This document shows, piece after piece, positions 37,451 to 54,852 of a stretch of 64,000 nucleotides of DNA (position 1 is its first letter; every line of letters begins with the position of its first letter). The notes beneath the pieces are model-generated. The model made no database searches. It was not told where the DNA came from and was given only the letters and a program-made list of their open reading frames with translations. The DNA is from Candidatus Methanophaga sp. AG-394-G06 (GTDB lineage Archaea > Halobacteriota > Syntropharchaeia > Alkanophagales > Methanospirareceae), in the NCBI GenBank assembly GCA_009903405.1, contig PRCZ01000002.1:912-64911 (forward strand). The letters run 5' to 3'. The position numbers and the translations under genes are program-made.

Positions 37451-37483
37451 GTCTGCTTAAAAATAGGTGGATTTTTAAGCAGA
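37451..37483. terminator. Perfect 12-bp stem hairpin between the convergent cheR and cheA genes (candidate bidirectional terminator)
   Basis: The sequence is gtctgcttaaaa-ataggtgga-ttttaagcagac. Confidence 0.5.
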
Positions 37484-39049
37484 CACCAACCCACCCACAT
37501 CCAAGATGAGTGCAACCGTGCCATCACCGAGTATTGTAGCACCAGCAAACTCTGTCCTACCTTTGAATCTTAATGGCTTGACTACTATCTCCTGTTGACC
37601 TATGAGTCTACCAACCATAAGCCCAAAGAATTTTTCGGCTCTTTCCACTACCACCACAGGACCTATACGATCTTTGTCCCCTGGTACGTCCAAGAGGTTT
37701 TTCAGTCTCAAGAGTGGCAGAACCCGTTCTCTATACCTAAATATCTCTTTTCCTTCAACACTTTTCAAATCCGTTTCACCAACTGCTACTATTTCACGGA
37801 TTGAATCTAATGGGATGGCATATCTTTCGTCTTCCACACCAACGAGTAATGCTTTAATAATAGCGATAGTCAAAGGCAGATGCAATTCAACGTTTGTACC
37901 TCTGCCTTTTTCTGATTTTATTCTTACGCTTCCACCCAGTGATTTGACCTTTGATGTAACAACATCAAAACCGACACCTCTGCCTGAAATATCAGTGATT
38001 TCTCTCGCCGTGCTCAGCCCGGGCTCACTCAGAAGTTCATAAACATCTGCGTCATTCATGCTCGATGCCTCCTCCTGGGTTATGATTTTCCTTTCCACTG
38101 CTATCTTTTTGAGTTCTTCTATAACTATTCCTCTGCCATCATCTTCAACGGATACAACAACATGGTTCCCTTCTCTTATTGCACTCAATATAACCTTTCC
38201 TTTATCCGTCTTACCAGCCTTCTTTCTATCTTCTGGTTTCTCTATCCCATGATCTACCGCATTACGCAACAGATGCAGTACTGCATCATTTATCTCATCA
38301 AGCACAAGACGATCAAGTTCTATCTCCTTACCAGATACAATAAAATCCAGTTCCTTTCCTGTTTTCTTGCTTAAATCTCGTACTGCTCTTGGAAACTTGT
38401 CAAATAGGTATCCAACAGGGAACATGCGCATCTGCATTACCCGGTCCTGCAATTCTGATGTGCGCCGGTCTATTGTGGCAGTTATCTCATTGAGTTCATG
38501 GCTGGCATATTTTGATGCGATCTGTAGTAGGCTCATCTTTGCTATCGCTAATTCCTCTACAAGATTCTGCAATGCCTGTATCTTTTCTATACTTATCCGT
38601 ATTGATGGACTAACTCTCCCGGCAACCACTCCTTCCGCTGTAACGGTTGGTCGTTCAACATCTTCTTTCTTCTCCGCTGGAATATTTTTCAGTTTTTTAT
38701 GCAATGCAGTAAAATCAAGTTTTACCGTTTTCCCGGTTGCCACACTTTCGACAAGTGTCTCAAGCCCGTCAAGGGATTCGAGCAGAAGATCAACTGTTCC
38801 TTCTTCTGGTTCTCCCCCTTTCCTCAGGACATCAAGCACATTCTCCATCTCATGCGATAGCTCTTCCATATCGGGAAATCCCATTGTGGCTGCCATGCTT
38901 TTCAGTGTGTGTACCGCCCGGAACGTTTCATTTAATGCGTCTGTGTTATCTGATTCTTTCTCCAACGTTAGCAGATTTCTACTTATGCATTGCAGATGCT
39001 CTCTTGACTCGTCTACGAACAGTTCCTTATATTGTGATACGTCAACCAT
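37475..39049 (-). CDS. cheA: Chemotaxis histidine kinase CheA
   Basis: The HPt site is HTLKSMAATMGF. A dimerisation domain, the HATPase (LLRNAVDHGIE, DDGRGI, GRGVGFD) and a CheW-like C-terminus are present. Confidence 0.9.
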   Translation of the reverse strand: MVDVSQYKELFVDESREHLQCISRNLLTLEKESDNTDALNETFRAVHTLKSMAATMGFPDMEELSHEMENVLDVLRKGGEPEEGTVDLLLESLDGLETLVESVATGKTVKLDFTALHKKLKNIPAEKKEDVERPTVTAEGVVAGRVSPSIRISIEKIQALQNLVEELAIAKMSLLQIASKYASHELNEITATIDRRTSELQDRVMQMRMFPVGYLFDKFPRAVRDLSKKTGKELDFIVSGKEIELDRLVLDEINDAVLHLLRNAVDHGIEKPEDRKKAGKTDKGKVILSAIREGNHVVVSVEDDGRGIVIEELKKIAVERKIITQEEASSMNDADVYELLSEPGLSTAREITDISGRGVGFDVVTSKVKSLGGSVRIKSEKGRGTNVELHLPLTIAIIKALLVGVEDERYAIPLDSIREIVAVGETDLKSVEGKEIFRYRERVLPLLRLKNLLDVPGDKDRIGPVVVVERAEKFFGLMVGRLIGQQEIVVKPLRFKGRTEFAGATILGDGTVALILDVGGLVSA

Positions 39050-39111: not shown

Positions 39112-39264
39112 TCATTTCATTGCGCATTTCTTCGGCTGAGACGCTATTACATCATCCAGATAGCAATCCTCACACAGCTTAAGACCTCCGAACTCGTAAA
39201 CATCTCCGGATATTGGCTTGCCACATTTCTCGCATTTTATGTTTGTCTTAACGCTCTTTTCCAT
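39112..39264 (-). CDS. Zinc-finger miniprotein (50 aa)
   Basis: The sequence MEKSVKTNIKCEKCGKPISGDVYEFGGLKLCEDCYLDDV is below the ORF-track cutoff. It is co-directional with the downstream LC module. Confidence 0.4.
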   Translation of the reverse strand: MEKSVKTNIKCEKCGKPISGDVYEFGGLKLCEDCYLDDVIASQPKKCAMK

Positions 39265-39435
39265 TTTTAACGTTTAGTTATGGAACTATTCCAATCGCTC
39301 CTCGCGGGCAAGTCATCATGCAGTTAGTGCAACAGATGCCTGCCAGGCTAATAATGGCGATGATTGTTGCATAGCGCTCTAAACTAAAAAATAAAAAAAG
39401 GACAGAGTTATCTCCTCCTTTTCCTCTACCTACTT

Positions 39436-39603
39436 CTACTTGCAAAAGGCACAACTGTCATCGGAAGCGCCGATACTGCAGCTCATGCGGTTTTCAGCGT
39501 ATAGTTTTGACCCGCACTTCTGACAAACCATAATGCGTCCAAGTTCTTTGTGGTCCGCTTCCATTCTACTCCCTTCATTTCCACACAATTCGCATTTACC
39601 CAT
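39436..39603 (-). CDS. Double CxxC zinc-ribbon miniprotein (55 aa)
   Basis: The sequence reads MGKCELCGNEGS...VCQKCGSK...CAFCK. A truncated paralogue lies at 52966-53004. Confidence 0.45.
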   Translation of the reverse strand: MGKCELCGNEGSRMEADHKELGRIMVCQKCGSKLYAENRMSCSIGASDDSCAFCK

Positions 39604-39642
39604 TTTGTTCTCTTCCTGCTTCTAATTAACCCTCTCTACTCT

Positions 39643-39960
39643 TTACTTTCTCAGTTCTTCCAGTCTCTTCTTTATCTGCTCTAACTGGTCCCCAAGCATC
39701 TGTGCCTGCGATTCGAGCATAGAAATCTCCTGCTCTTTCGGCACTGCTGCCATGCCCATTGGTGCAACCGGTGCAACTGCTGGTGCTTGCTGCTGTATCC
39801 AAGAAGCAAACTGCGGCATCTGTCCTGTCTGTGTGAGATACTGTGCACCCGGCGGCATTCCCGTTGGGCTTCTTCCTACCCAACCCGGAGAGTATCCAAA
39901 TCGCATCCAGCCGGGTAAACCAGTCAGATAATACATGTTTCTCCTTCCATATCCACCCAT
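39643..39960 (-). CDS. Low-complexity Gly/Tyr/Trp/Pro/Met-rich protein (105 aa) with a C-terminal coiled-coil tail (copy A)
   Basis: The N-terminus reads MGGYGRRNMYYLTGLPGWMRFGYSPGW and the C-terminus reads EQEISMLESQAQMLGDQLEQIKKRLEELRK. Positions 39640-39942 are 100% identical to 53040-53342. Confidence 0.55.
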   Translation of the reverse strand: MGGYGRRNMYYLTGLPGWMRFGYSPGWVGRSPTGMPPGAQYLTQTGQMPQFASWIQQQAPAVAPVAPMGMAAVPKEQEISMLESQAQMLGDQLEQIKKRLEELRK

Positions 39961-39987
39961 TTTTTTCTTATTGCCTCCTAAATTCTT

Positions 39988-40191
39988 TTACGGTCTTGTC
40001 ATTTTAGATCCGCATTTTGGGCAGGTCTGCTGATAGCATGGTACCCCCGTTGGATGCGGCATTGTATAGCCACAATTTGGGCATCGACATTCTCCGCTGG
40101 GGCCCAATCCGCTGCCACCCATTCTCCCTCGCCCTTGACCTCCTCGTCCTACTCCTTGACCCCTTCCGCCTCCTCTACCCATACCACTCAT
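39988..40191 (-). CDS. RGG-box plus zinc-ribbon miniprotein (67 aa, copy A)
   Basis: The N-terminal box MSGMGRGGGRGQGVGRGGQGRGRMGG is followed by CRCPNCG...CPKCGSK. Confidence 0.55.
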   Translation of the reverse strand: MSGMGRGGGRGQGVGRGGQGRGRMGGSGLGPSGECRCPNCGYTMPHPTGVPCYQQTCPKCGSKMTRP

Positions 40192-40192
40192 C

Positions 40193-40417
40193 TTATCTTA
40201 TCCCCCTCCCATAAGAATAGGGATAGCCATAATATGGCATTGGGTATATCCCTGGAGCTGGAGCTATTGCTCCATACATTCCTGTCCACCACCTTCTGGG
40301 AAGCCACGGGAAATTCCTGCAGCATGGATAAGGGTTGCCCATTCCCATACCTCTTCCTGGTCCAAAACCAGACCAAAAACCTCTTCCAAATCCTCTTCCT
40401 CTTGCCATTTTTTTCAC
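40193..40417 (-). CDS. Arg/Gly/aromatic-rich low-complexity protein (74 aa; present only in copy A)
   Basis: The sequence MKKMARGRGFGRGFWSGFGPGRGMGMGNPYPCC...YPMPYYGYPYSYGRG is wedged between the NifX-like gene and the 67-aa gene. Confidence 0.4.
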   Translation of the reverse strand: MKKMARGRGFGRGFWSGFGPGRGMGMGNPYPCCRNFPWLPRRWWTGMYGAIAPAPGIYPMPYYGYPYSYGRGIR

Positions 40418-41028
40418 CCCCTTTTAAGTTCTTCCATTCTCTTCTTCACTTCTTCCAAATCTTTCGCCAGTCTATTTGCCATGTTCGATAGTTCTTCGAT
40501 TTCTTCTTCTTTCGTTCGAGGCGTTATTGGTGCCTGCGGCGCTTGTGGTTGTGGTTGCGAAGGCACCGTTTGCTGCATGCCAAGTCCCATGCCTCTGCCC
40601 ATGCCTTGCCCTCTACCGCCGCCTCGTCCTCCACCCATGCCAAATCCGCCACCTGGAGCAATAGCACCCATACCTGCATGAGCAGAAACTGTCGAACCCT
40701 CCGTCTCGTTAAGTCCACCGGTTTTATACATTTCAACAGCTTCTTGAACCGTGCCATAGGCGCCAGTTGCAATTTTCACACCCGCCGTGGAAAGCACCTG
40801 AAAGGCATTGGGGCCTATATTCCCTGATATAACTACATTCACCCCTTTATTCACAACGGCTTGTGCTGCTTGAATCCCTGCTCCTCCCGGTGCGGTAATG
40901 GCTTCGTTTGCCATCGCTTCGAACGCCATCGTATCTGAATCAACGAACACAAAGTATTGGCACCTTCCAAACCTCGGGTCTACCTGCGCATTCCGGTCTC
41001 CCGCTGTTGCGGTTACGCATATCTTCAT
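40414..41028 (-). CDS. NifX/NafY-family (dinitrogenase FeMo-cofactor-binding fold) domain protein with a Met/Gly/Arg-rich linker and a coiled-coil tail (copy A)
   Basis: The domain is indicated by MKICVTATAG..VDPRFGRCQYFVFVD...AITAPGGAGIQAAQAVVNKGVNVVISGNIGPNAF. The linker reads GMGGGRGGGRGQGMGRGMGLGM and the tail reads KEEEIEELSNMANRLAKDLEEVKKRMEELKRG. Confidence 0.8.
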   Translation of the reverse strand: MKICVTATAGDRNAQVDPRFGRCQYFVFVDSDTMAFEAMANEAITAPGGAGIQAAQAVVNKGVNVVISGNIGPNAFQVLSTAGVKIATGAYGTVQEAVEMYKTGGLNETEGSTVSAHAGMGAIAPGGGFGMGGGRGGGRGQGMGRGMGLGMQQTVPSQPQPQAPQAPITPRTKEEEIEELSNMANRLAKDLEEVKKRMEELKRG

Positions 41029-41067
41029 CTTTCATCTTCTCCCTTTTTGTTTTTTTTCTTCCACATG

Positions 41068-41081
41068 TGAATATATATTCA
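41068..41081. promoter_or_regulatory. Perfect palindrome TGAATATATATTCA upstream of NifX-like operon A (candidate operator and TATA-overlapping site)
   Basis: The identical 14-mer recurs at 54298-54311 and 54738-54751. Confidence 0.5.
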
Positions 41082-41097
41082 TATGAGTATGTAAATG

Positions 41098-41946
41098 TTA
41101 CTTCTTCTCTTCTTTACCTTCCACAAATGCCTGCACATTTTCCACTATCTGCCCAAATGCGTCTTTTACTTTCGATTCCTTTTGCATGACAAATGGCGTT
41201 CCGCTATCCGCAGCTTCTACCATCTGCGGGTCTAACGGCACTCTTCCAAGAAAAGGCACTCCTAACTCCGCCGCTGCCCTTTCTCCGCCTCCATATTTGA
41301 AGATATTTGTCGCTTTCCCACAGTATGGACACACAAACCCACTCATGTTCTCTATTATCCCTATAACCGGCACCTTCAGCACCCCTGAGAAGTTTACTGC
41401 CTTTCTTGAATCTAACAATGCTAAATCCTGCGGTGTTGTAACAATTATCGCGCCATCTACATTCTTTATCAACTGCGCAACACTGAGTGGCTCGTCGCCC
41501 GTCCCCGGCGGAAGGTCAACAATCATATAGTCCAGCTCACCCCAATCAACATCTGAAAGGAATTGCCTTATCGCATTCATCTTCATCGGTCCTCGCCAGA
41601 TGATCGGGGAATCTCTATCTGGTAACAGAAAACCTATGGACATCGCTTTTAGCCGTGGTGTGACTAAAATAGGCGACATTTTCCCCCCTGATGTCTCTGG
41701 CCGCTTGTCCTCTATCCCCAATATCTTTGGAATATCCGGCCCGTGTATATCAGCATCCATCAAACCCACGTCTAAACCGCTCATAGCGAGAGCAAAAGCA
41801 AGATTTGCTGCTACCGTTGTTTTCCCTACACCCCCTTTTCCACTCATCACCATTACCTTATGCTTTACCTTTCTCATGCTTGTATCAACTGCTTCCGCTT
41901 CTTCTTTCATCCCTCTTTTCCTTTCTTCCTCTTCTCCTTCATCCAT
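41098..41946 (-). CDS. apbC: Mrp/ApbC/NBP35-family Fe-S cluster carrier ATPase
   Basis: The P-loop is [10 protein letters not shown], and the C-terminal CPYCG motif is present. Confidence 0.85.
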
Positions 41947-42056
41947 ATTTTATTTATCACCCCTAACAAACCATAAACTCATAAAATTACCGCTTTCTAG
42001 CCTTATAGCTTTCCGTTCAACAAAAGCTTCCGCTATATATTCACACTATTTAGTGA

Positions 42057-43211: not shown

Positions 43212-44222
43212 ATGAAAGAGGCGATGTTCTATGAGAAGCTGGAAGGGAACGCTGTTAGATGTCACCTATGCCCACATCATTGCAAGATAAACGAATCGAG
43301 GCGAGGGATATGTGGGGTTAGAGAAAACAGGGGTGGTATTCTCTACAGCCTGGTTTATGGAAAGGTAGTTGCGAGAGGGATTGATCCAATAGAGAAGAAG
43401 CCGTTCTTCCATTTCTATCCCGGCTCTGAGGCATACTCGGTTGCTACGGTTGGATGCAATTTCAGATGTAAAAACTGCCAGAACTTCGAAATTTCTCAGA
43501 TGCCTAAAGAAGACAAGAGGCAGATAGTAGGGGAAGATGTATCTCCTGAAGAGATTGTTGCGACAGCTAAGCAATATGGTTGTAGAAGCATCGCATACAC
43601 GTATACCGAACCGACCATCTTTTTCGAGTTTGCTTATGATACTGCCAGACTGGCGCATAAAGAAGGAATATGCAACACCTTTATCTCGAACGGGCATATT
43701 ACAGAGGAGGCTATACGCACTCTCGCCCCTTATTTAGATGCGGTAAATGTAGACCTGAAGGGGCTATCGGAAGACATGTATCGAAAAATTTGCGGTGGGC
43801 ACTTGAAACCTGTCCAGGATGCGATAAAGCTATACAAAAGCCTGGGTGTTTGGGTTGAGGTAACCACGCTGGTTATACCAACGTTGAACGATTCCGAGGA
43901 AGATTTCAGAGGGATTGCCGAATTCATCAAAAGTGTAGGCGTGGACATACCCTGGCATGTCTCACAGTTCTATCCCATGTATAAGCTAACTCATCTCCCT
44001 CCAACACCGGTTAGTACCTTACGTGAAGCGAGGGAAATTGGGCTGGAGGTAGGGTTGAGATACGTGTATGAGGGCAATGTTCCGGGTGAGGGAGGAGAGA
44101 ATACCTACTGCTACCAATGCGGAGAGTTGCTAATCCGGCGCTATGGATTTCAAATCAGGGAGAATAAAATACTAGATTCAAGATGTCCAAGTTGTGGTAC
44201 CAAGATAGATGGGAGATTGTAA
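43212..44222 (+). CDS. amrS: AmmeMemoRadiSam-system radical SAM enzyme (PFL-activase-like)
   Basis: The N-terminal CHLCPHHC and the radical SAM motif CNFRCKNC are present. The N-terminus has the MKEAMFYEKLE...ICGVREN character of this family. Confidence 0.75.
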   Translation: MKEAMFYEKLEGNAVRCHLCPHHCKINESRRGICGVRENRGGILYSLVYGKVVARGIDPIEKKPFFHFYPGSEAYSVATVGCNFRCKNCQNFEISQMPKEDKRQIVGEDVSPEEIVATAKQYGCRSIAYTYTEPTIFFEFAYDTARLAHKEGICNTFISNGHITEEAIRTLAPYLDAVNVDLKGLSEDMYRKICGGHLKPVQDAIKLYKSLGVWVEVTTLVIPTLNDSEEDFRGIAEFIKSVGVDIPWHVSQFYPMYKLTHLPPTPVSTLREAREIGLEVGLRYVYEGNVPGEGGENTYCYQCGELLIRRYGFQIRENKILDSRCPSCGTKIDGRL

Positions 44223-45341: not shown

Positions 45342-45799
45342 TGGACCACCATCAATGTCGTAACAGTTGCTATGGACACTAAGATAGCGAGAATGAACCC
45401 CAGCGAGTTTCTAATAACTGCGAATCGTTTGCCGAGAAAGGCCGCTTCAGCAGGAAATTGAACTATACTAACCGTTACCCATGTCACTATGAATGCAGTT
45501 ATCGCAAAGAGGCTCACACCCTCTTTCATGAGCTCCCCACCTATTATATAGCTGGTGATAGGATTACCTGCGGCGATACTTCCAATTGCAGAGCCAATTA
45601 CAGTATCACGAAACAATTCCCCTGTAAATACAGATGCAATAAACTGTTTTGATACACATGTTAGGAAAAGTCCCAAAAGCAGGACAACCCCAAGCAACGT
45701 TGGAAGAGCAGCCCCTAAACTTTTGAATGCACGATAAAAAGACCTGACAATACTTTTGGGTTTTTCATTGTCTATACCCGTTGGTTTAGGATTAGTCAT
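45338..45799 (-). CDS. Putative permease, N-terminal half (COG0701/DUF318-like)
   Basis: The sequences GSAIGSIAAGNPITSYIIGGELMKEG and QFPAEAAFLGKRF are present. The gene overlaps the radical SAM start by 8 nt. Confidence 0.45.
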   Translation of the reverse strand: MTNPKPTGIDNEKPKSIVRSFYRAFKSLGAALPTLLGVVLLLGLFLTCVSKQFIASVFTGELFRDTVIGSAIGSIAAGNPITSYIIGGELMKEGVSLFAITAFIVTWVTVSIVQFPAEAAFLGKRFAVIRNSLGFILAILVSIATVTTLMVVQ

Positions 45800-46784
45800 G
45801 CCCTCTCTTTTCCTCCATTGTAAGCCAGAAGACTTTCTCCTGGTATTTCAACTTCTTTATTTTTCCGCTTTTCTCCAGCCGTTTTATACTATCGCGAATA
45901 TTATATTTCTTTGGTAAAGCTTTCTTTTTGAAAGAAAGGTTTCTTAGCGTGTCTATAACCTGCCCCTCTCTCATTGGGTGCCGTCTTATTATTGCTAAAA
46001 TAGCATCTTCTGGGTTTGTGAATCCCTCAGTGGAAAATTCTCCAGTCTCCTCTTCGGTAATATCCACTACATTAGCATCATTAAGAATCGCATGTGCTAA
46101 TGTGATGGCGTCTTTATCAGGCGGTACAGCCCAAGGTTCCGCAGGTGGTCTTATCGGTACATTTATATACGTTCGATTGGGCTCTATCTTCTCAAGCCTG
46201 CTTTTTAGTGCTTTTAATTCTCTTTCTGTGTCATTTAGCCCCTTTACCAGCATGACTTCTACCCATATCTCACCGTTATAATCTCGCCTGAATCGTTCCA
46301 AACCTTCGACAACCGCCTTAAAATCAAGCCCGCGATGCGGCCTGTTTATCTTTCTGTATGTTTCGACAGTGCCGGCATCGAGGGAGGGCATAACAATATC
46401 TGCTTGTGAAAGGTCGTTTCTTACATCTTCTCTGTAAAGCAGGGACCCGTTTGTATCAACAGCTATGGGTATATCTGCTATTTCCTTAGTCTTCCTGATT
46501 AGCCAACCAAGGCTTTTACATAAAGTCGGTTCGCCTTCGCCTACGAAGGTCACAAAATCTATTTCGCGGTGGCTACTTTCTGCTTCTATTACTCTTCTGA
46601 TTTCGTTCAGCAACTCTTCTGGTGGAAAGAAGTCTTTACGCTGATTTGTCATGTGCGTTGTCCTGCCAAGCTGGCAGTAGACACAGGAATAGTTACAGGT
46701 TTTGAATGGGATTGGGTTAACGCCTAAAGAGCGACCAAGACGCCGTGATGGAACTGGTCCATAGACCATTTTCAGTTTATACAT
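45792..46784 (-). CDS. Radical SAM protein (COG0731-like) with a C-terminal extension of about 90 aa
   Basis: The N-terminus is GPVPSRRLGRSLGVN and the Cx3Cx2C motif is CNYSCVYC. Confidence 0.75.
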   Translation of the reverse strand: MYKLKMVYGPVPSRRLGRSLGVNPIPFKTCNYSCVYCQLGRTTHMTNQRKDFFPPEELLNEIRRVIEAESSHREIDFVTFVGEGEPTLCKSLGWLIRKTKEIADIPIAVDTNGSLLYREDVRNDLSQADIVMPSLDAGTVETYRKINRPHRGLDFKAVVEGLERFRRDYNGEIWVEVMLVKGLNDTERELKALKSRLEKIEPNRTYINVPIRPPAEPWAVPPDKDAITLAHAILNDANVVDITEEETGEFSTEGFTNPEDAILAIIRRHPMREGQVIDTLRNLSFKKKALPKKYNIRDSIKRLEKSGKIKKLKYQEKVFWLTMEEKRGHD

Positions 46785-49222: not shown

Positions 49223-49760
49223 TTATTTTTGATCTTTCCCTCCAAAAAGTTTGTTATAAAGCGATGTGTACCTGTGCGCTTTAAGTTTCTCCTTTTCTTC
49301 AGCTATCACAGGAGCAGTATCTGTCTTCTCGTAACCCTTCTGCCCCGATATATACCTCTCTACCACTTCCCAGCCATGCCCTACTGAGCCATGATAACAA
49401 GAAGGCGCCCACAGATGACTCGGGCACCACTCCTTAAGCTGCGGGAATCGATCCCTCAACAGCTTACTACTTCTACCCTTTATCCGCTTCGCTATCCAGC
49501 TTACCGAATACTTCGGTGGACTGCGAAGCATTTCTGTGAAACATTTTTGATAAAACTTTTCTTAAATGTTTTGTAAACGCTTTTTCTAAAAGGGTTTTTA
49601 TGAACAAAGGTACATGATCCACATTCATTGCCATGTCTATAATCGCAATATCAAGCTCTTTGCAGGTTTCCCTGAGAATTTCTCCCGCCACCTCTGCAAC
49701 ATCCCCGAGCTATACCTTCCAGCGATATTTCAGTGAAAAACAGGAATTTCATCCCGGTAA
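49223..49760 (-). mobile_element. tnpA: Degraded IS200/IS605-family tnpA (Y1 HuH transposase) with frameshifts
   Basis: The 102-aa ORF reads SPPKYSVSWIAKRIKGRSSKLLRDRFPQLKE...HLWAPSCYHGSVGHGWEVVERYI, which matches the TnpA C-terminal half. The overlapping 72-aa ORF in another frame has DIAIIDMAMNVDHVPLF, corresponding to the HuH region. Confidence 0.6.
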
Positions 49761-49824: not shown

Positions 49825-50691
49825 CTAATTTATACCATCCCACACCACCTTTATCGCATCCGATACCACCCCTTCTGCGAATTCAACCACCGGCATACCC
49901 GCAACCATCGCTTCAGTGACCACGGAGTCGTATGGTATGTTGCCAACAACTTGTATTCCTCGCTGTCTGCAAAACTCGGTAATCCTCTTGCTGTTCTCTT
50001 CATTAATGTCGTATTTATTGATGCAGACGGCGGAAGCAATACCGAAATGTCTGGTCACATCCATGATTCGTTCGAGGTCATGCAGTCCGGACATCGTGGG
50101 CTCGGTAACGATGAGCGCAAGGTCCACACCGGCCAATGACGCAATTACAGGGCAGCCGATGCCCGGCGATCCGTCAATCAGAATGAGTTCACAGCCCTCT
50201 TTTTCTGCAACCTGCTGTGCATTGTTTCTAACAACAGTGACCAGTTTTCCTGATGCCTCTTCCGCGATATTGAGCTGCGCATGCACCATTGTGCCATAGT
50301 TAGTCTTTGATATAAATGCATAGCCCGAGACACGTTCTTTCAGCGTAACCGCTTCCTGTGGACACGTAAACACACAAGCGCCACAGCCCTCACAACGTGC
50401 GGGATTGACTGCATAGCCTGATTCTTCGGTCGAAGCAATAGCGTTGAATCGACATGTTTCTTCGCACGTTCCACACTCGGAGCATAGCGTTTTATCTATA
50501 ACGGCAACTTTCACGCCTTTAAACTCCTCCTTCTTTATGATTTCCGGATGTAGCAGCAGATGGAGGTCTGGTGCGTCTACATCGCAGTCTACAATGACTT
50601 TGTTCTCTACAAGGGCCGCGAACGAGCCCACAAGGGTTGTCTTCCCCGTGCCACCTTTTCCACTAATAACCGTTATTTGTTTCATTTGCAT
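49825..50691 (-). CDS. MinD/ParA-family P-loop ATPase with an inserted 2x[4Fe-4S] ferredoxin domain (COG1149, CooC-like)
   Basis: The P-loop is ISGKGGTGKTT. Two CxxCxxCxxxCP clusters are present. Confidence 0.8.
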   Translation of the reverse strand: MQMKQITVISGKGGTGKTTLVGSFAALVENKVIVDCDVDAPDLHLLLHPEIIKKEEFKGVKVAVIDKTLCSECGTCEETCRFNAIASTEESGYAVNPARCEGCGACVFTCPQEAVTLKERVSGYAFISKTNYGTMVHAQLNIAEEASGKLVTVVRNNAQQVAEKEGCELILIDGSPGIGCPVIASLAGVDLALIVTEPTMSGLHDLERIMDVTRHFGIASAVCINKYDINEENSKRITEFCRQRGIQVVGNIPYDSVVTEAMVAGMPVVEFAEGVVSDAIKVVWDGIN

Positions 50692-50772
50692 ATACCTTTT
50701 ATAATCACAAGATTACACACATTTTTACAAAAACCCTTTTCTTAGAAAGAAAAGCTGTACCAAAAGAACTAT

Positions 50773-50850
50773 TTTTTCTTTTAGCACAGGCTAAATTTTC
50801 TTTTTTAAAAAAGAAAAAGTGTTGTGTAAATCTTGTGTAATCTCGTGGTT
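50773..50850. repeat. Intergenic repeat of about 70 bp, copy 2 (see 4565-4632)
   Basis: It is nearly identical to copy 1. It has an extra GTGTAATCT duplication at the 3' end and lies between the two MinD-ferredoxin genes. Confidence 0.7.
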
Positions 50851-51703
50851 ATAATAGAACTTTATCAATTATCCCTGCAAATCGCTCCTTCCACTCCGGC
50901 ATCGCCTTCACAAAGGGCACGCCCTCAGAATAGTAACGTGCAATCCGCGTGTCATGTGGAATCTCAAGCAAAATCGGAATCCCTTCCTTCTCGCAGTACT
51001 CATACACCTTTCGATCCCCAATCCCTGCTTTATTTATAACCATGCCAAAAGGAATCTTAAGCACTCTGAGCACCTCAACTGCAAGCCTCAAATCGTAGAG
51101 CCCAAACGGGGTGGGCTCAGTCACAAGAATGCAGTAATCGCTTCCTTGCACGGCTGCAATCACCGGGCATGCCGTTCCCGGTGATACATCAATAATCACT
51201 GTCTTTTCCGGATCAAGGTCCGCTTTTACCTGGTCGATCAGCGGTGTTGCCATTATCTCCCCGATATTCAACACCCCGTACACGAGGTCAACGTTGCCGT
51301 CACCGCTTTTTCCTGTTTTTATAACGCCGATCTCCCTCGGTTCCTCGCTGATCGCATCCTGCGGGCATACTAAGGAACATAACCCACAGCCGTGGCAAAG
51401 TTCCGGAAACAGCATTACTTCTTTTTGTGGCACCGCAACAAGAGCGTTGTATTCACACGCCGCAGCACACTTACCGCAGTAATCACACAAATCGTAATTG
51501 ACCCTTGGCACCAGCGTATACGCCGGCTTTATCTCCTCGATCACCGGATTAAGGAAGATATGTGAATTTGGCTCTTCTACATCGCAATCCATTAATTGTA
51601 CGTTCGAAAGCGACAGAGCCAGATTAACAGCTACGGTTGTCTTTCCCGTACCGCCTTTGCCGCTTGCTACCGCAATAATCATCGGTTCACCGTTTTGTTG
51701 CAT
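50849..51703 (-). CDS. MinD/ParA-family ATPase with an inserted ferredoxin domain, second paralogue
   Basis: The P-loop is ASGKGGTGKTT and Cys clusters include CDYCGKCAAAC and CHGCGLCSLVCP. The start was set at the internal Met to avoid the overlap. Confidence 0.8.
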   Translation of the reverse strand: MQQNGEPMIIAVASGKGGTGKTTVAVNLALSLSNVQLMDCDVEEPNSHIFLNPVIEEIKPAYTLVPRVNYDLCDYCGKCAAACEYNALVAVPQKEVMLFPELCHGCGLCSLVCPQDAISEEPREIGVIKTGKSGDGNVDLVYGVLNIGEIMATPLIDQVKADLDPEKTVIIDVSPGTACPVIAAVQGSDYCILVTEPTPFGLYDLRLAVEVLRVLKIPFGMVINKAGIGDRKVYEYCEKEGIPILLEIPHDTRIARYYSEGVPFVKAMPEWKERFAGIIDKVLL

Positions 51704-51714
51704 TGTGCGTCCCA

Positions 51715-52074
51715 TTAATGCCGGTGCATTTTGCACGCATTGGCATCACTAGCTTCGTTGAGTCTCCCTGCCTGAAAAGCGCTTATTGCTTCGCTTACCG
51801 TACCACTGGCGCCTACATACACCTCTATCCCCAACTGTTCAAACGCGCTTATTGCACGAGGGCCTAATCCGGAACAGAGCATTATCTCTGCACCCGCACC
51901 TGCTACGAGATCCGGTGTATTGCCTACACCGCCAAAATGTTCACCCGTGTTCTGCACAATTTCCACCTTGTTACTCACCATATCCACAACAGTAAATGTT
52001 GGTGCTCTTCCAAAATGCTCACTTACAAGATCTTCCAATCCTCCATTTCCCAATGAGGGAATGCATAGTTTCAT
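51715..52074 (-). CDS. NifX/NafY-family domain protein (stand-alone, 119 aa)
   Basis: The sequence reads MKLCIPS.........HFGRAPTFTVVD...GVGNTPDLVAGAGAEIMLCSGLGPRAISAF. Confidence 0.75.
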   Translation of the reverse strand: MKLCIPSLGNGGLEDLVSEHFGRAPTFTVVDMVSNKVEIVQNTGEHFGGVGNTPDLVAGAGAEIMLCSGLGPRAISAFEQLGIEVYVGASGTVSEAISAFQAGRLNEASDANACKMHRH

Positions 52075-52078
52075 ATGT

Positions 52079-52570
52079 TCATCTCCTCTCTTTTTTATTC
52101 CTCTTTTTATTCCTATTCTTATTCTTACTCTTATAATCTTCCAGAGCTGCTCTTAGCGTGTCCATTGCAAGCACAGAGCAATGAATGTTTTCTTCCGGTA
52201 AACCACCCAAAACGGATAAAACGTCCTTGCCCTCTACCGTGAGTGCTTCTTCGATTGTCTTACCTTTCACCAGTTCTGTAACCACGCTTCCACATGCCAT
52301 TGAAGCACCACAACCATCGGTTATGAATTTGCAATCTACGATTTTATTCTCTTCAACTTTAATATGCATCTGCAGTGTGTCTCCGCAGGGGCCGGTTACT
52401 CTGGCAGCACCACTGGGGGCTTCCAGTTCACCAACGTTTTTTGGGTTGTATGCCGCCTCAAGTGTCTTCTCAGTGTATATTCCCCTTTCCTCTTCTAATA
52501 TTTCCTCTTCCATCTTCTTGGTTAGTTCATCGAAATCGGAAGTTTCATTTTTTTCGGTTATTTTTTCCAT
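52079..52570 (-). CDS. IscU/NifU-N-like Fe-S scaffold protein with an acidic N-terminus and a polybasic C-terminal tail
   Basis: The conserved ligands are GPCGD, DGCGAS and HCS. The tail reads KSKNKNRNKKRNKKERR. Confidence 0.7.
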   Translation of the reverse strand: MEKITEKNETSDFDELTKKMEEEILEEERGIYTEKTLEAAYNPKNVGELEAPSGAARVTGPCGDTLQMHIKVEENKIVDCKFITDGCGASMACGSVVTELVKGKTIEEALTVEGKDVLSVLGGLPEENIHCSVLAMDTLRAALEDYKSKNKNRNKKRNKKERR

Positions 52571-52619
52571 TTTACCTGCATTTCATCACGCATTTTTTAA
52601 CGTTTAAATATTTACACAC

Positions 52620-52931
52620 TTATAGCTCTTCGATACTTCTTTCCATCTCTTCAACTTTGGACCTTACGACGTTTAATTGCGTTTTTAGCCTCTCTAGTAC
52701 TGGATCTCTCTGCAAAATTGGAGATGAATGTGGGGCTATTTGGATGGCACCCTTTGGACAAGCCCGTACACAAGCAGTGCAGCAGATACACCTGTTAAAA
52801 TCCACTACTGCTTTTTTATCAACAATTCCAATCGCACCGGTACAGCAAACCGCGGTGCACTTTCCACACCCTACGCATAGTTCTTCGTTAACAAAAGCTT
52901 TCCAAGCTAATGATTGTATAGATTGCTGCAT
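52620..52931 (-). CDS. 2x[4Fe-4S] ferredoxin with a C-terminal coiled-coil tail
   Basis: The clusters are [11 protein letters not shown] and [12 protein letters not shown]. The tail reads [25 protein letters not shown]. Confidence 0.75.
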
Positions 52932-52965
52932 AGCACACTAAAAAAGAAAAAGGAGCAAGAAAGAG

Positions 52966-53004
52966 CTATCTTCTCGCTTTTCCACACAGTTCGCATTTAC
53001 CCAT
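52966..53004 (-). pseudogene. Truncated copy of the 55-aa zinc-ribbon gene (12 codons, MGKCELCGKARR-stop) at the edge of duplication B
   Basis: It is homologous to the start of the 39436-39603 gene. Confidence 0.4.
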
Positions 53005-53043
53005 TCCCTTCTCCTCATGTTTCTAATTGGCCCTTTCCACTCT

Positions 53044-53361
53044 TTACTTTCTCAGTTCTTCCAGTCTCTTCTTTATCTGCTCTAACTGGTCCCCAAGCAT
53101 CTGTGCCTGCGATTCGAGCATAGAAATCTCCTGCTCTTTCGGCACTGCTGCCATGCCCATTGGTGCAACCGGTGCAACTGCTGGTGCTTGCTGCTGTATC
53201 CAAGAAGCAAACTGCGGCATCTGTCCTGTCTGTGTGAGATACTGTGCACCCGGCGGCATTCCCGTTGGGCTTCTTCCTACCCAACCCGGAGAGTATCCAA
53301 ATCGCATCCAGCCGGGTAAACCAGTCAGATAATACATGTTTCTGTGTCTATTTCCTCCCAT
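53044..53361 (-). CDS. Low-complexity Gly/Tyr/Trp/Pro/Met-rich protein (105 aa) with a coiled-coil tail (copy B)
   Basis: It differs from copy A only at residues 4-7. Positions 53040-53342 are 100% identical to 39640-39942. Confidence 0.55.
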   Translation of the reverse strand: MGGNRHRNMYYLTGLPGWMRFGYSPGWVGRSPTGMPPGAQYLTQTGQMPQFASWIQQQAPAVAPVAPMGMAAVPKEQEISMLESQAQMLGDQLEQIKKRLEELRK

Positions 53362-53388
53362 TTTTTTCTTATCGCCTCCTAATTTTTT

Positions 53389-53592
53389 TTATGGTCTCGC
53401 CATTTTAGACCCGCATTTTGGGCAGCTCTGCTGATAGCATGGCACCCCCGTTTGATGCGACATTGTATAGCCACAATTCGGGCATCGACAATCTCCGGCA
53501 GGACCCAATCCGCTGCCACCCATTCTCCCTTGCCCTTGACCTCCTCGTCCTATTCCTTGACCTCTTCCTCCTCCTCTACCCATGCCACTCAT
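53389..53592 (-). CDS. RGG-box plus zinc-ribbon miniprotein (67 aa, copy B)
   Basis: The sequence reads MSGMGRGGGRGQGIGRGGQGQGRMGG...CRCPNCG...CPKCGSK. It is identical to copy A at 62 of 67 residues. Confidence 0.55.
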   Translation of the reverse strand: MSGMGRGGGRGQGIGRGGQGQGRMGGSGLGPAGDCRCPNCGYTMSHQTGVPCYQQSCPKCGSKMARP

Positions 53593-53603
53593 CTTATTTT
53601 ACG

Positions 53604-54248
53604 TCACCTCTTTTTAAGTTCTTCTAGCCTCTTCTTCACTTCTTCCAAATCTTTCACCAGTCTATTAGCCATGTTCGATAGGTCTTCGATTTCTTCTTCT
53701 TTCGTTCGAGGCTTTATTGGTGCCTGCGGCGCTTGTGGTTGCGAAGGCAGTGGTTGCTGCATGCCAAGTCCCATACCTCTGCCCATACCTCTGCCCATGC
53801 CTTGCCCTCTACCGCCGCCTCGTCCTCCGCCCATGCCCATACCCATGCTCGTGCCCATGCCAAATCCGCCACCCGGTGCAGTAGCGCCCATACCAGCATG
53901 AGCAGCTACTGTTGAAGTACCTGTCTCACCTAACTTACCGCCTTTATACATCTCAACAGCTTCTTGTACCGTGCCATAAGCGCCTGTTCCAATTTTCACA
54001 CCAGCGGTGGACAACACTTGAAAAGCATTGGGACCTATATTCCCCGAAATGACTACATTCACACCTTTATTCACCATTGTTTGTGCCGCCTGAATTCCCG
54101 CTCCACCCGGTGCGGCAATCGCTTCGTTCGCCATCGCTTCAAATGCCATTGTCTCCGAATCTACGATTACAAAGTATTGGCACCTTCCAAACCTCGGGTC
54201 TACCTGTGCATTCAGGTCTCCTGCCGTTGCGGTTACGCATATCTTCAT
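53604..54248 (-). CDS. NifX/NafY-family domain protein with a Met/Gly/Arg-rich linker and a coiled-coil tail (copy B)
   Basis: The domain is the same as in copy A. The linker is longer (GMGTSMGMGMGGGRGGGRGQGMGRGMGRGMGLGM) and the tail reads KEEEIEDLSNMANRLVKDLEEVKKRLEELKKR. Confidence 0.8.
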   Translation of the reverse strand: MKICVTATAGDLNAQVDPRFGRCQYFVIVDSETMAFEAMANEAIAAPGGAGIQAAQTMVNKGVNVVISGNIGPNAFQVLSTAGVKIGTGAYGTVQEAVEMYKGGKLGETGTSTVAAHAGMGATAPGGGFGMGTSMGMGMGGGRGGGRGQGMGRGMGRGMGLGMQQPLPSQPQAPQAPIKPRTKEEEIEDLSNMANRLVKDLEEVKKRLEELKKR

Positions 54249-54297
54249 CTTTATCTTTCACCTTCTTCCTATAGATTTTGATTTTTTCTTCTTTATG

Positions 54298-54311
54298 TGA
54301 ATATATATTCA
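54298..54311. promoter_or_regulatory. Palindrome TGAATATATATTCA upstream of operon B, with a TATA-like TATATAAA at 54318-54325
   Basis: On the coding strand the order is TTTATATA, 6 nt, palindrome, about 45 nt, ATG. Confidence 0.5.
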
Positions 54312-54332
54312 TATGAGTATATAAATGATAGA

Positions 54333-54734
54333 CTATGATGAAACCAAAGGATCTCCACCACGCCCATGTCTCCCTCTTTTCCAGTCAGGAGACAGTTTCG
54401 AAAGGGGCACATGCGTTTCATTGTTAGCACTCAATATTACATAATTACCGCCTTCTATTCTTATTGCTTTCCCTTCAACAAAAGCTTCTGCTATCTTCCG
54501 ATGTGCTTCGCTTACTATTCGATGGAATGTAGGTTGCGAAACGCCCATTTTTTTCGCTGCTTCTTCCTGACTTAGCCGCTGATAGTCTTTAAGCCTTATG
54601 CTCTCCAGTTCTTCCACTTTCAATATCAATCTTTCATAGACCTCAGGATTAGGCGTTCTTTCACCTCGTCGTGGCTCGAAGAGGAGGAAATTTGGCTTGA
54701 CGCTTACGCACCTGCACAGTCTTCGCCCTGGCAT
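54333..54734 (-). CDS. DUF134 (UPF0251) predicted DNA-binding protein
   Basis: The N-terminus is MPGRRLCRCVSVKP. The sigma-70 region-4-like HTH reads LSQEEAAKKMGVSQPTFHRIV, followed by GKAIRIEGG. The start was set at MPGRR rather than the upstream ATG that lies inside the palindrome. Confidence 0.75.
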   Translation of the reverse strand: MPGRRLCRCVSVKPNFLLFEPRRGERTPNPEVYERLILKVEELESIRLKDYQRLSQEEAAKKMGVSQPTFHRIVSEAHRKIAEAFVEGKAIRIEGGNYVILSANNETHVPLSKLSPDWKRGRHGRGGDPLVSS

Positions 54735-54737
54735 ATA

Positions 54738-54751
54738 TGAATATATATTCA
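54738..54751. promoter_or_regulatory. Third copy of the palindrome TGAATATATATTCA, 3 nt upstream of the DUF134 start codon
   Basis: The site is seen directly in the sequence. Autoregulation is inference. Confidence 0.5.
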
Positions 54752-54852
54752 CAATACACGTTAAAGTTTCACACTTTAATTTTTTCGAGATGTTGCAATC
54801 TTGAGAATACTAGCAGTACAACATGAAAAAGTCGGATCTTCAGCAGAGTGTC

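Follow-up and report, generated by a model that had tools for sequence, protein, structure and literature searches.

What does a NifX-type protein do when it carries a long disordered linker and a coiled coil, and when its gene heads a row of genes for miniproteins? This question is raised by a locus on contig PRCZ01000002.1 of Candidatus Methanophaga sp. AG-394-G06 (assembly GCA_009903405.1), an archaeon of group 1 of the anaerobic methanotrophic archaea (ANME-1; Methanophagales), to which a contig of a public metagenome-assembled genome is 99% identical. The locus, called operon A here, occupies positions 39112-41946 on the minus strand of a stretch of 64,000 nucleotides (nt), which we refer to as the window and whose numbering is used throughout. 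In the direction of transcription, it encodes an Mrp/NBP35-type Fe-S carrier ATPase (Mrp for short), a protein of 204 amino acids (aa) with a NifX domain and a DUF5320 tail (NifX-DUF5320), and five small proteins named after their lengths: p74, p67, p105, p55 and p50 (Table 1). An original prediction had described six minus-strand open reading frames (ORFs) of 204, 74, 67, 105, 55 and 50 aa, all of which are present as described, as one operon for a metallocluster or metal-handling scaffold.

We propose that the locus most likely varies, in a form not yet characterised, on two established systems: the orange protein (ORP) complex of Desulfovibrio and the IssA store of Pyrococcus furiosus. More specifically, we think it reasonably probable that the row encodes components of an assembly of the ORP/IssA type, with which ANME-1 would handle or store iron-sulfur (iron-sulfide) species. 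We favour this because the NifX domain is ORP-like, the Mrp and NifX-DUF5320 genes form an MrpORP-like pair, and the window holds the full ORP-complex set together with NifU_N and ferredoxin genes. Further reasons are that DUF5320 modules are tied to Fe-S domains, with distant relatives in iron-homeostasis contexts, that the 204-aa protein has a tail whose individual residues are retained throughout ANME-1, in contrast to those of a neutral spacer, and that one of the small proteins has the composition of an IssA tail. In Methanococcus voltae, moreover, two IssA homologues are up in pyrite-grown cells, with a thioferrate-like electron paramagnetic resonance signal (PMC8516115). The domains, the modular DUF5320 relations, the synteny, the operator and the distant linkage to iron uptake are known from the genes themselves.

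An ORP-like protein and its Mrp neighbour

Residues 13-102 of the 204-aa protein match PF02579 (E 7e-25, 87.6 bits; cut-off 26.3), which, together with the fold, places it in the NifX/NafY/NifB-C 'Di-Nase' family (PF02579/IPR003731) and bears out the earlier N-terminal assignment. AlphaFold2 (24 homologues) models residues 1-114 as a folded domain (predicted local distance difference test, pLDDT, ~90), leaves 115-165 disordered (pLDDT <50) and shapes 173-203 into a helix (pLDDT ~90), in agreement with the disordered linker and helical tail of the original prediction. A sequence search returned six relatives in the PDB, the best being ORP of D. gigas (2WFB, E 2e-18). The next closest solved relatives are TM1290 and MTH1175, and the latter has been described as belonging to the IssA type but with a tail that is short or missing (PMC5524996). 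At the level of structure, Foldseek aligns the NifX domain with 2WFB at a TM score of 0.82 and 42% identity, and the AlphaFold2 model of the domain superposes on 2WFB, 1RDU, 2YX6, 1O13 and 1EO1 with probability 1.00. The protein contains two Cys residues, of which C4 is invariant and C23 is sometimes replaced by Ser.

The linker (aa 115-170) is rich in Gly, Arg and Met at first and then in Gln and Pro, and the hydrophobic residues of the helix are spaced 3-3-4-4-3-4-3, a heptad-like pattern that is also seen in the C-terminal half of the p105 helix (4-3-4-3). Residues 118-201 match DUF5320 (PF17253) at 33.9 bits, above the Pfam gathering threshold of 27 bits by which we define membership. DUF5320 is an uncharacterised family whose members, of ~100 aa, begin with an RG-rich region and end in a coiled coil; in the literature searched, DUF5320 and DUF134/UPF0251 receive passing mentions, and no function for DUF5320 was found there. 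Fusion of NifX to DUF5320 is already present and annotated in thousands of public proteins (4653 matches; 120 of 120 among the matches listed carry both), and several ANME-1 assemblies hold 2-4 such loci each.

The gene upstream encodes Mrp (PF10609, E 5e-101), with the deviant Walker A motif GKGGVGKT and a CPYC motif, the combination (GKGGhGK[ST] plus CXXC) that marks MrpORP and Mrp-NBP35 proteins. These are its only two Cys residues, and it lacks the four-Cys motif found at the N-terminus of MrpORP. Against the NCBIfam model for MrpORP (NF041136), Mrp reaches 376 bits with a match that covers positions 1-256 of the 365 in the model, and the NifX domain of the 204-aa protein matches positions 273-361 at 38 bits. 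Because the two genes divide the model in this way, the pair looks like an unfused MrpORP, with Mrp as its P-loop half. Mrp itself was rejected as an MrpORP proper, as it falls below the cut-off of 450 bits and the domains are split over two genes. Mrp lies immediately 5' of NifX-DUF5320 in 26 of the 45 related loci for which the flank is available, and the functional unit takes in this gene too.

In Desulfovibrio, the ORP complex consists of Orp3, Orp4, Orp5, Orp8 (ORP) and Orp9 (MrpORP), the last of which binds a [4Fe-4S] cluster through its CXXC motif and passes clusters on to Orp3 and Orp4 (PMC6345978). Counterparts of all five components are present in the window, as an ORP-type PF02579 protein, an Mrp carrier, a second NifX and two MinD-like proteins with 2x[4Fe-4S] ferredoxin. 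They are contiguous in many related loci, whereas here they are divided between operon A (Mrp, NifX-DUF5320) and a second, paralogous cluster, operon B (NifX-DUF5320, NifX and two MinD-ferredoxin ATPases; Table 1). Other differences from the Desulfovibrio complex are that MrpORP is split into two genes, that the ORP-like domain bears a DUF5320 linker and coiled coil, and that three DUF5320-derived and two CxxC miniproteins are interleaved with the other components.

The original statement that no characterised system has this architecture therefore does not hold. IssA combines a NifX-type domain with a cationic, Gly-rich and aromatic tail (PMC5524996), the domain of the 204-aa protein is nearest to ORP, its neighbour resembles MrpORP (PMC6345978), and its linker and tail are DUF5320, in a fusion that is common in public databases. 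The general idea of a metal-handling scaffold fares better: it fits the Mrp/NBP35, NifU, ferredoxin and MinD-ferredoxin neighbours as well as the distant linkage to FeoAB, Fur and DtxR genes.

Conserved small genes and DUF5320-like modules

A row of short frames with biased composition, three of which lack a significant match to a curated family, could consist of spurious reading frames on low-complexity DNA, with the NifX gene as the only real one. Comparison with 70 related loci makes this practically impossible. The ratio of nonsynonymous to synonymous substitution rates (dN/dS; Nei-Gojobori, 8-40 orthologues per protein) is 0.16 for p74, 0.12 for p67, 0.11 for p105, 0.21 for p55 and 0.17 for p50, next to 0.09 for Mrp and 0.15 for the 204-aa protein, and the whole row is under purifying selection. 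Amino-acid identity among ANME-1 homologues is typically ~70-97% in a fixed order, Cys/His and Trp/Pro motifs are invariant, and homologues in other phyla are called as genes by other pipelines. Spurious frames are thus ruled out by dN/dS values of 0.11-0.21 and by synteny, and both the reality of the small genes and the conservation of their order, as originally proposed, stand.

The order is kept in dozens of ANME-1 genomes. Among the related loci, 42 extend for at least 1.5 kb past the NifX-DUF5320 gene on its downstream side; of these, 34 have p67 and 35 have p105 after it (30 have both), p74, p67 and p105 are found together in 19, and a plain NifX gene and then MinD-like ATPases come next in 19. 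The accessory genes are less frequent, with p55 in 13 of these loci (after p105) and p50 in eight. On the basis of these counts, the core module is NifX-DUF5320, an optional p74, and then p67 and p105, to which p55 and p50 are accessory. Pfam searches gave weak zinc-ribbon family matches only for p55 and weak DUF7685 and LIM matches for p50, which in two loci (L004 and L025) closely precedes a unit of NifX and MinD-ferredoxin genes.

As for transcription, the oligo-T tract that follows p55 is probably the archaeal transcription stop of the row, going by its sequence. Because of this tract and the 171-nt gap behind p55, p50 is probably transcribed apart and is best seen as a loosely associated member. 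The original idea of a single operon is upheld as far as the conserved order goes, but it probably has to give up p50. A scan for sigma-70 promoters and hairpin terminators yielded counts at shuffle level, with the sole hairpin on the wrong strand, and is uninformative for an archaeon. Between p55 and p50 lies a 58-aa ORF (39278-39454, minus) ending in ICCTNCMMTCPRGAIGIVP, an end that is identical to the second [4Fe-4S] motif of the operon B ferredoxin at 12 of 19 positions (E 9e-8); this ORF is probably the remnant of a decayed ferredoxin gene. Directly downstream of the row, a 524-aa ORF (37475-39049, minus) resembles a CheA-type histidine kinase by its translation alone; the same junction occurs in L009 and L020, and other loci have NifX and MinD-like genes at this place.

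The small proteins of the core module, together with the tail of the 204-aa protein, read as rearranged DUF5320 modules. The likeness is graded: the 204-aa tail passes the threshold, as does that of the operon B copy (32.5 bits), p105 falls just under it (25.8 bits, E 2.6e-5; 26.9 bits for the operon B copy), and p74 and p67 themselves give no match and are linked to the family through relatives that match differing parts of the model. In p105, an N-terminal region rich in aromatic residues, Gly, Pro and Met, divergent from that of DUF5320, precedes a coiled coil at the C-terminus, which is a homologue of the one in the 204-aa protein (BLASTP, 44% over 50 aa, E 4e-9). Compared with DUF5320, p105 thus corresponds to the coiled-coil part, p74 to the central CR..PW.PRRWW part without the coiled coil, and p67 to the N-terminal RG part with an added Cys knuckle, each in a gene of its own, and one further copy is fused to NifX. 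The same coiled-coil tail occurs on three different heads, namely NifX-DUF5320, p105 and the operon B ferredoxin.

The p74 family comprises 37 homologue clusters, is without Pfam annotation, and has the invariant core GNPxPxCRxxPWxPRxWW in the alignment of homologues. The homologues begin at Met4 (MARGRG or MPRGRG), so the true product is probably one of 71 aa that starts at 40408 (p71). A search of 1.84 billion representatives with the family profile gave 94 hits; in the sequences read out of these, the core stands alone, with a DUF5320 coiled coil, or behind 2x[4Fe-4S] ferredoxins. The link to DUF5320 is clearest in the relative P0246 (38.6 bits), in which the p74 core is followed by a DUF5320 coiled coil; P0239 scores 27.4 bits, and P0261 joins p105-like and p74-like segments with a coiled coil.

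The p67 family is larger (82 homologue clusters in archaea and bacteria) and likewise lacks Pfam annotation. Its N-terminus is of the DUF5320 type (MPRGDGTGP...GRG), and its relative P0151 reaches 26.8 bits over model positions 1-54. In p67, aa 1-28 form a disordered RGG stretch, and the 9-mer GRGGGRGQG is common to the start of p67 and the linker of the 204-aa protein, as can be read directly from both and as had been noticed originally. The C-terminal half (aa 31-67, AlphaFold2 pLDDT 83-90) contains the invariant residues C35, C37, C40, H46, C52, C57 and C60, with two CxxC motifs (C37xxC40 and C57xxC60). It scores 20.3 bits against the zinc-ribbon family PF13240, below the cut-off of 25, and a fold search returned no specific relative but only generic zinc-ribbon and rubredoxin-like matches (E >0.6). 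We regard this half as a small, Cys-rich, predicted metal-binding knuckle for Zn or Fe.

A second cluster, a shared palindrome and distant relatives

Operon B came to light when the operon A proteins were compared with the window by tblastn, and its genes were assigned from ORFs and Pfam matches (Table 1). The DNA of the p67-p105 segment (39578-40200 versus 52979-53601) is 93.6% identical between the clusters, compared with 80% for the NifX-DUF5320 genes, which suggests recent gene conversion or partial re-duplication of this segment. Immediately downstream of operon B lies an incomplete IS200-like Y1 transposase gene (PF01797, model positions 57-121 only; 49223-49531, minus), and the region between the two clusters encodes two radical-SAM enzymes, at 43212-44222 (plus) and 45792-46784 (minus), and a predicted permease.

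Table 1. Positions of the features of operons A and B in the window, with the distance to the next gene where given
Feature	Position	Strand	Remarks
Mrp/NBP35-type Fe-S carrier ATPase, 282 aa	41098-41946	minus	69 nt to the 204-aa gene
21-bp box CATATGAATATATATTCACAT with core palindrome TGAATATATATTCA	41065-41085	minus	TATA-like TTTACATA before the box
NifX-DUF5320, 204 aa	40414-41028	minus	5 nt to p74 (counted from the Met4 start)
p74 (probably 71 aa, p71)	40193-40417	minus	1 nt to p67
p67, 67 aa	39988-40191	minus	27 nt to p105
p105, 105 aa	39643-39960	minus	39 nt to p55
p55, 55 aa, 7-Cys CxxC...CxxC...CxxC miniprotein	39436-39603	minus	171 nt to p50
Oligo-T tract T7 A T6	39386-39399	minus	3' of p55; read from the sequence
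p50, 50 aa, CxxC...CxxC miniprotein	39112-39264	minus	62 nt, then the CheA-like ORF
Operon B, whole	49825-54752	minus	without p74 and Mrp genes
DUF134 helix-turn-helix protein	54333-54752	minus	Pfam
NifX-DUF5320, 214 aa	53604-54248	minus	84% identical to the operon A copy
p67 paralogue	53389-53592	minus	88% identical to the operon A copy
p105 paralogue	53044-53361	minus	97% identical to the operon A copy
2x[4Fe-4S] ferredoxin with heptad-patterned C-terminal coiled coil, 103 aa	52620-52931	minus	Pfam
NifU_N scaffold	52079-52570	minus	Pfam
Plain NifX	51715-52074	minus	Pfam
MinD-type ATPase with 2x[4Fe-4S] ferredoxin insert	50849-51736	minus	Pfam
MinD-type ATPase with 2x[4Fe-4S] ferredoxin insert	49825-50691	minus	Pfam

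The two clusters share a potential control element. Their upstream regions are near-identical over 32 nt, and the 21-bp box CATATGAATATATATTCACAT, whose core TGAATATATATTCA is a perfect 14-bp palindrome, occurs three times in the window (41065-41085, 54295-54315 and 54734-54754), where zero copies are expected by chance. These copies precede both NifX-DUF5320 genes and the DUF134 gene (the 54734-54754 copy). Elsewhere, the palindrome is found in 50 of the 70 related loci; nearly all of the sites listed lie just 5' of a NifX-DUF5320 or DUF134 start (positions read from flanks), ~8-10 nt downstream of a TTTATATA-like element. The box and the TATA-like element are probably the promoter and operator of the NifX-DUF5320 transcription unit, as predicted from their sequence and position. 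In a few loci (L026 and L047), a copy lies upstream of Mrp, and in the window a half-site, TGAATATATA, is seen upstream of Mrp at 42034-42043.

Because the palindrome is common to both clusters and the DUF134 gene, DUF134 is a candidate for its regulator, and we infer that it is a probable autoregulated repressor of the palindrome regulon. The two papers found to name DUF134 deal with neither this protein nor its DNA site; one apparent match turned out to concern DUF1349. Control of this kind differs from that of the Desulfovibrio ORP complex, which is regulated by sigma-54 and an enhancer-binding protein (DVU2106), as opposed to a palindromic operator with DUF134 as its probable binder. No gene for an enhancer-binding protein was found among the window genes scanned, and archaea are not known to use sigma-54.

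Outside ANME-1, the modules recur in iron-related surroundings. In a metagenome-assembled genome (MAG) of Thermoprotei (L073, 1483-7303), the order DtxR-FeoA-FeoA-FeoB-x-p67 is found beside NifX and two MinD-ferredoxin genes, and a metagenome contig (L077, 529-8220) holds Fur-FeoA-FeoB-FeoC-DUF134-DUF5320-x-x-p74-NifX-MinD-MinD-Mrp on one strand. In L075 (4114-7078), DUF134 is followed by DUF5320-p67 and then by a cation-efflux (CDF) transporter fused to NifX, an unusual architecture. An Anaerolineae MAG (L076) has Mrp-NifX-...-p74-DUF5320-NifX/DUF5320-MinD-MinD-radical SAM, and further distant contexts include NifU_N, ferredoxin, thioredoxin and a Zip permease. DUF5320 is thus fused to NifX in some genomes and lies beside a tail-less NifX in others. 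Since, in addition, the p74 core is fused to ferredoxins, we take this pattern as Rosetta-stone evidence that DUF5320-type modules may work jointly with Fe-S domains.

Likeness to IssA and possible functions

IssA of P. furiosus consists of an IPR003731 domain and a 70-residue tail that is Pro-rich at first and then cationic, aromatic and Gly-rich; it forms nanoparticles in which chains of anionic thioferrate serve as the store of iron and sulfur, and its tail has been proposed to wrap the polyanion (PMC5524996). The 204-aa protein resembles it in having a PF02579 domain followed by a Pro-rich and Gly/Arg-rich disordered tail, in its few Cys residues and in relatives linked to iron supply. It differs in being acidic, in ending in a coiled coil and in the NifX domain, which shares only ~32-37% identity with that of IssA, and the aromatic and cationic segments here reside on separate polypeptides. 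According to the published criteria, a protein of the IssA clade has an isoelectric point (pI) of 9 or more, no more than four Cys and a Gly content of 20% or above in its last 40 residues (Vaccaro et al. 2017). As a control set, the N-terminus of IssA was back-translated from a published supplementary primer into a degenerate pattern and searched for in metagenomes, which yielded nine IssA-like genes of the Thermococcales type. Eight of these are complete, and their products satisfy each of the three criteria (pI 9.2-10.0, Gly 28-30%). On the hydrothermal metagenome contigs concerned (L078-L086), each IssA-like gene is followed within ~0.6 kb by a tail-less second NifX gene, and in L080 also by a gene with a metallo-beta-lactamase fold; the end of the IssA-like tail is strictly conserved (...GWGA[RQ]LGYCP..G.P.RR......GWW).

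A likeness to the IssA tail is found in p71, encoded by a separate gene. Its 71 residues include 16 Gly, 9 Arg, 10 Pro, 16 aromatic residues and 2 Cys (pI 10.4), and those of a Thermococcales-type IssA-like tail (101 aa) include 15 Gly, 8 Arg, 18 Pro, 21 aromatic residues and 1 Cys (pI 10.0). Both run from RG repeats to a Cys and then to PW...P.RR.W. In a comparison of the p74 family with the IssA tail, hhalign aligns 25 columns, the last of them at the Cys, with a probability of 66% (E 5.5e-5), and a post hoc motif occurs in 18 of 18 members of the p74 family and in 5 of 8 IssA tails, compared with ~5e-4 to 9e-4 of shuffles. The resemblance lies in composition and motif, with homology unproven.

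How might such an assembly operate? By analogy with its family, Mrp would carry a bridging [4Fe-4S] cluster on its CPYC motif and exchange Fe-S species, as supplier or receiver, with the ORP-like NifX domain of the 204-aa protein. The NifX heads may bind an anionic metal-sulfide, as their relatives ORP and IssA bind linear species without classical Cys ligation. Matching coiled coils on the 204-aa protein, p105 and the operon B ferredoxin, together with the Gly/Arg/Met linker and the free-standing miniproteins, could tether several Fe-S heads, and the cationic and aromatic segments of p71 and of the N-terminal parts of p67 and p105 could wrap or neutralise anionic iron-sulfide. What the cis tail of IssA has been proposed to do would thus be done partly in trans, and p67 would add a Cys6His metal site. 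Transcription would start from the dedicated promoter, with the 14-bp palindrome as operator and DUF134 as probable regulator.

Several points weigh against an iron-sulfide assembly of this kind. The 204-aa protein was rejected as an IssA, as it fails two of the three published criteria: it has the required low number of Cys residues, but its pI is 5.93 and Gly makes up 2.5% of its last 40 residues, because the last 34 form the coiled coil. The linker (111-170) does contain 32% Gly, but only three Arg, and its sole aromatic residue is one Phe. Profile searches with HMMER match p74 to the IssA tail no better than composition-matched shuffles, and direct homology of p74/p71 to this tail is not claimed, with only the hhalign score and the post hoc motif in its favour. 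In the 11 sequences read of the 94 p74-profile hits, among them the hits whose own C-terminal part was matched, no fusion to NifX was seen and the partners are ferredoxins or coiled coils, and IssA-like tails give no DUF5320 match. Feo, Fur and DtxR genes were not found among the window genes scanned (42.0-56.9 kb). ORP itself is of limited help, as its physiological cluster and role are unsettled, and cell division has been proposed (PMC6345978). We infer from the genes all physical interactions, the bound species and the role in storage or trafficking.

The proposal for ORP leads to another reading, in which the locus encodes an archaeal ORP complex for cell division or spatial positioning, with MinD-like ATPases that position and with coiled-coil and RG proteins as structural adaptors. 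ORP is indeed the best match in sequence and fold, operon B encodes MinD-type ATPases, and the Desulfovibrio complex is 'putatively involved in cell division', with MrpORP at a cell pole (PMC6345978; PMC4641369). However, operon A itself lacks a MinD-type gene, the modules are fused to Fe-S domains, and the distant neighbours are FeoAB, Fur, DtxR, CDF-NifX, NifU, ferredoxins and thioredoxins rather than division genes, so that we consider this reading unlikely. A role in handling a Mo/W-Cu-sulfide, as in ORP, in which the Met-Gly repeats would be soft ligands for Cu(I), the metal suggested for them originally, strikes us as quite unlikely. Met-rich Cu(I) motifs exist in other proteins, usually with MxxM or MxM spacing, from which the GMG spacing here differs, although the linker segment GMG...GMGRGMGLGM is kept across ANME-1. 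The 42% identity to D. gigas ORP speaks for this role, as ORP homologues hold a non-covalent Mo-Cu-sulfide cluster, [S2MoS2CuS2MoS2] (PMC6345978); however, neither the row nor the related contexts examined contain a gene for molybdate, tungstate or copper transport or for a chaperone of these metals, and the related contexts point to iron (Feo, Fur, DtxR, NifU).

The small proteins could also act on nucleic acids, as RGG/RG boxes do in many proteins and as the original prediction considered for the boxes found here; they would then be regulators or RNA chaperones that bind RNA or G-quadruplex DNA, with p67 as a zinc-ribbon binder. One automatic annotation labels p67 an 'ssDNA-binding Zn-finger', and a motif scan in Methanosarcina mazei flagged one DUF5320 protein and one DUF134 protein for an RG motif like that of quadruplex binders (PMC7565180). 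Across phyla, however, the genes are found among Fe-S and iron genes and not with those for RNA or DNA metabolism, NifX and ferredoxin domains carry these modules as fusions, and the fold matches of p67 are the generic ones described above, which makes this option very unlikely. Weighed against these options, the ORP/IssA-type iron-sulfur assembly remains the reading that we prefer. It can be extended into a more far-reaching and, in our view, doubtful proposal: DUF5320-type modules, the p74 and p67 families included, would be widespread trans-acting 'IssA tails' that nucleate an iron-sulfide store in mesophilic anaerobes such as ANME-1, repressed by DUF134 at TGAATATATATTCA and coupled to Feo uptake. 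In this proposal, Arg/Gly/aromatic segments, joined through coiled coils to NifX/ORP, ferredoxin or Cys-knuckle heads, would hold a polymer or condensate in archaea as well as bacteria.

What is new here is the recognition of the DUF5320, p74 and p67 families as one modular system tied to ORP-type clusters and iron homeostasis, along with a polypeptide resembling the IssA tail that is encoded as a separate gene and a conserved operator. The buffering and storage of iron and sulfide in strict anaerobes, which are full of Fe-S enzymes, is a largely open question, with IssA as the sole characterised iron-sulfide store. The locus connects the IssA and ORP systems and offers a candidate regulator and operator in DUF134 and the 14-bp palindrome. 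Proteins annotated as 'NifX-like hypothetical', in many anaerobes besides ANME-1, thereby gain a concrete functional hypothesis and, if the idea of tails acting in trans is true, iron-sulfide storage would extend beyond hyperthermophiles.

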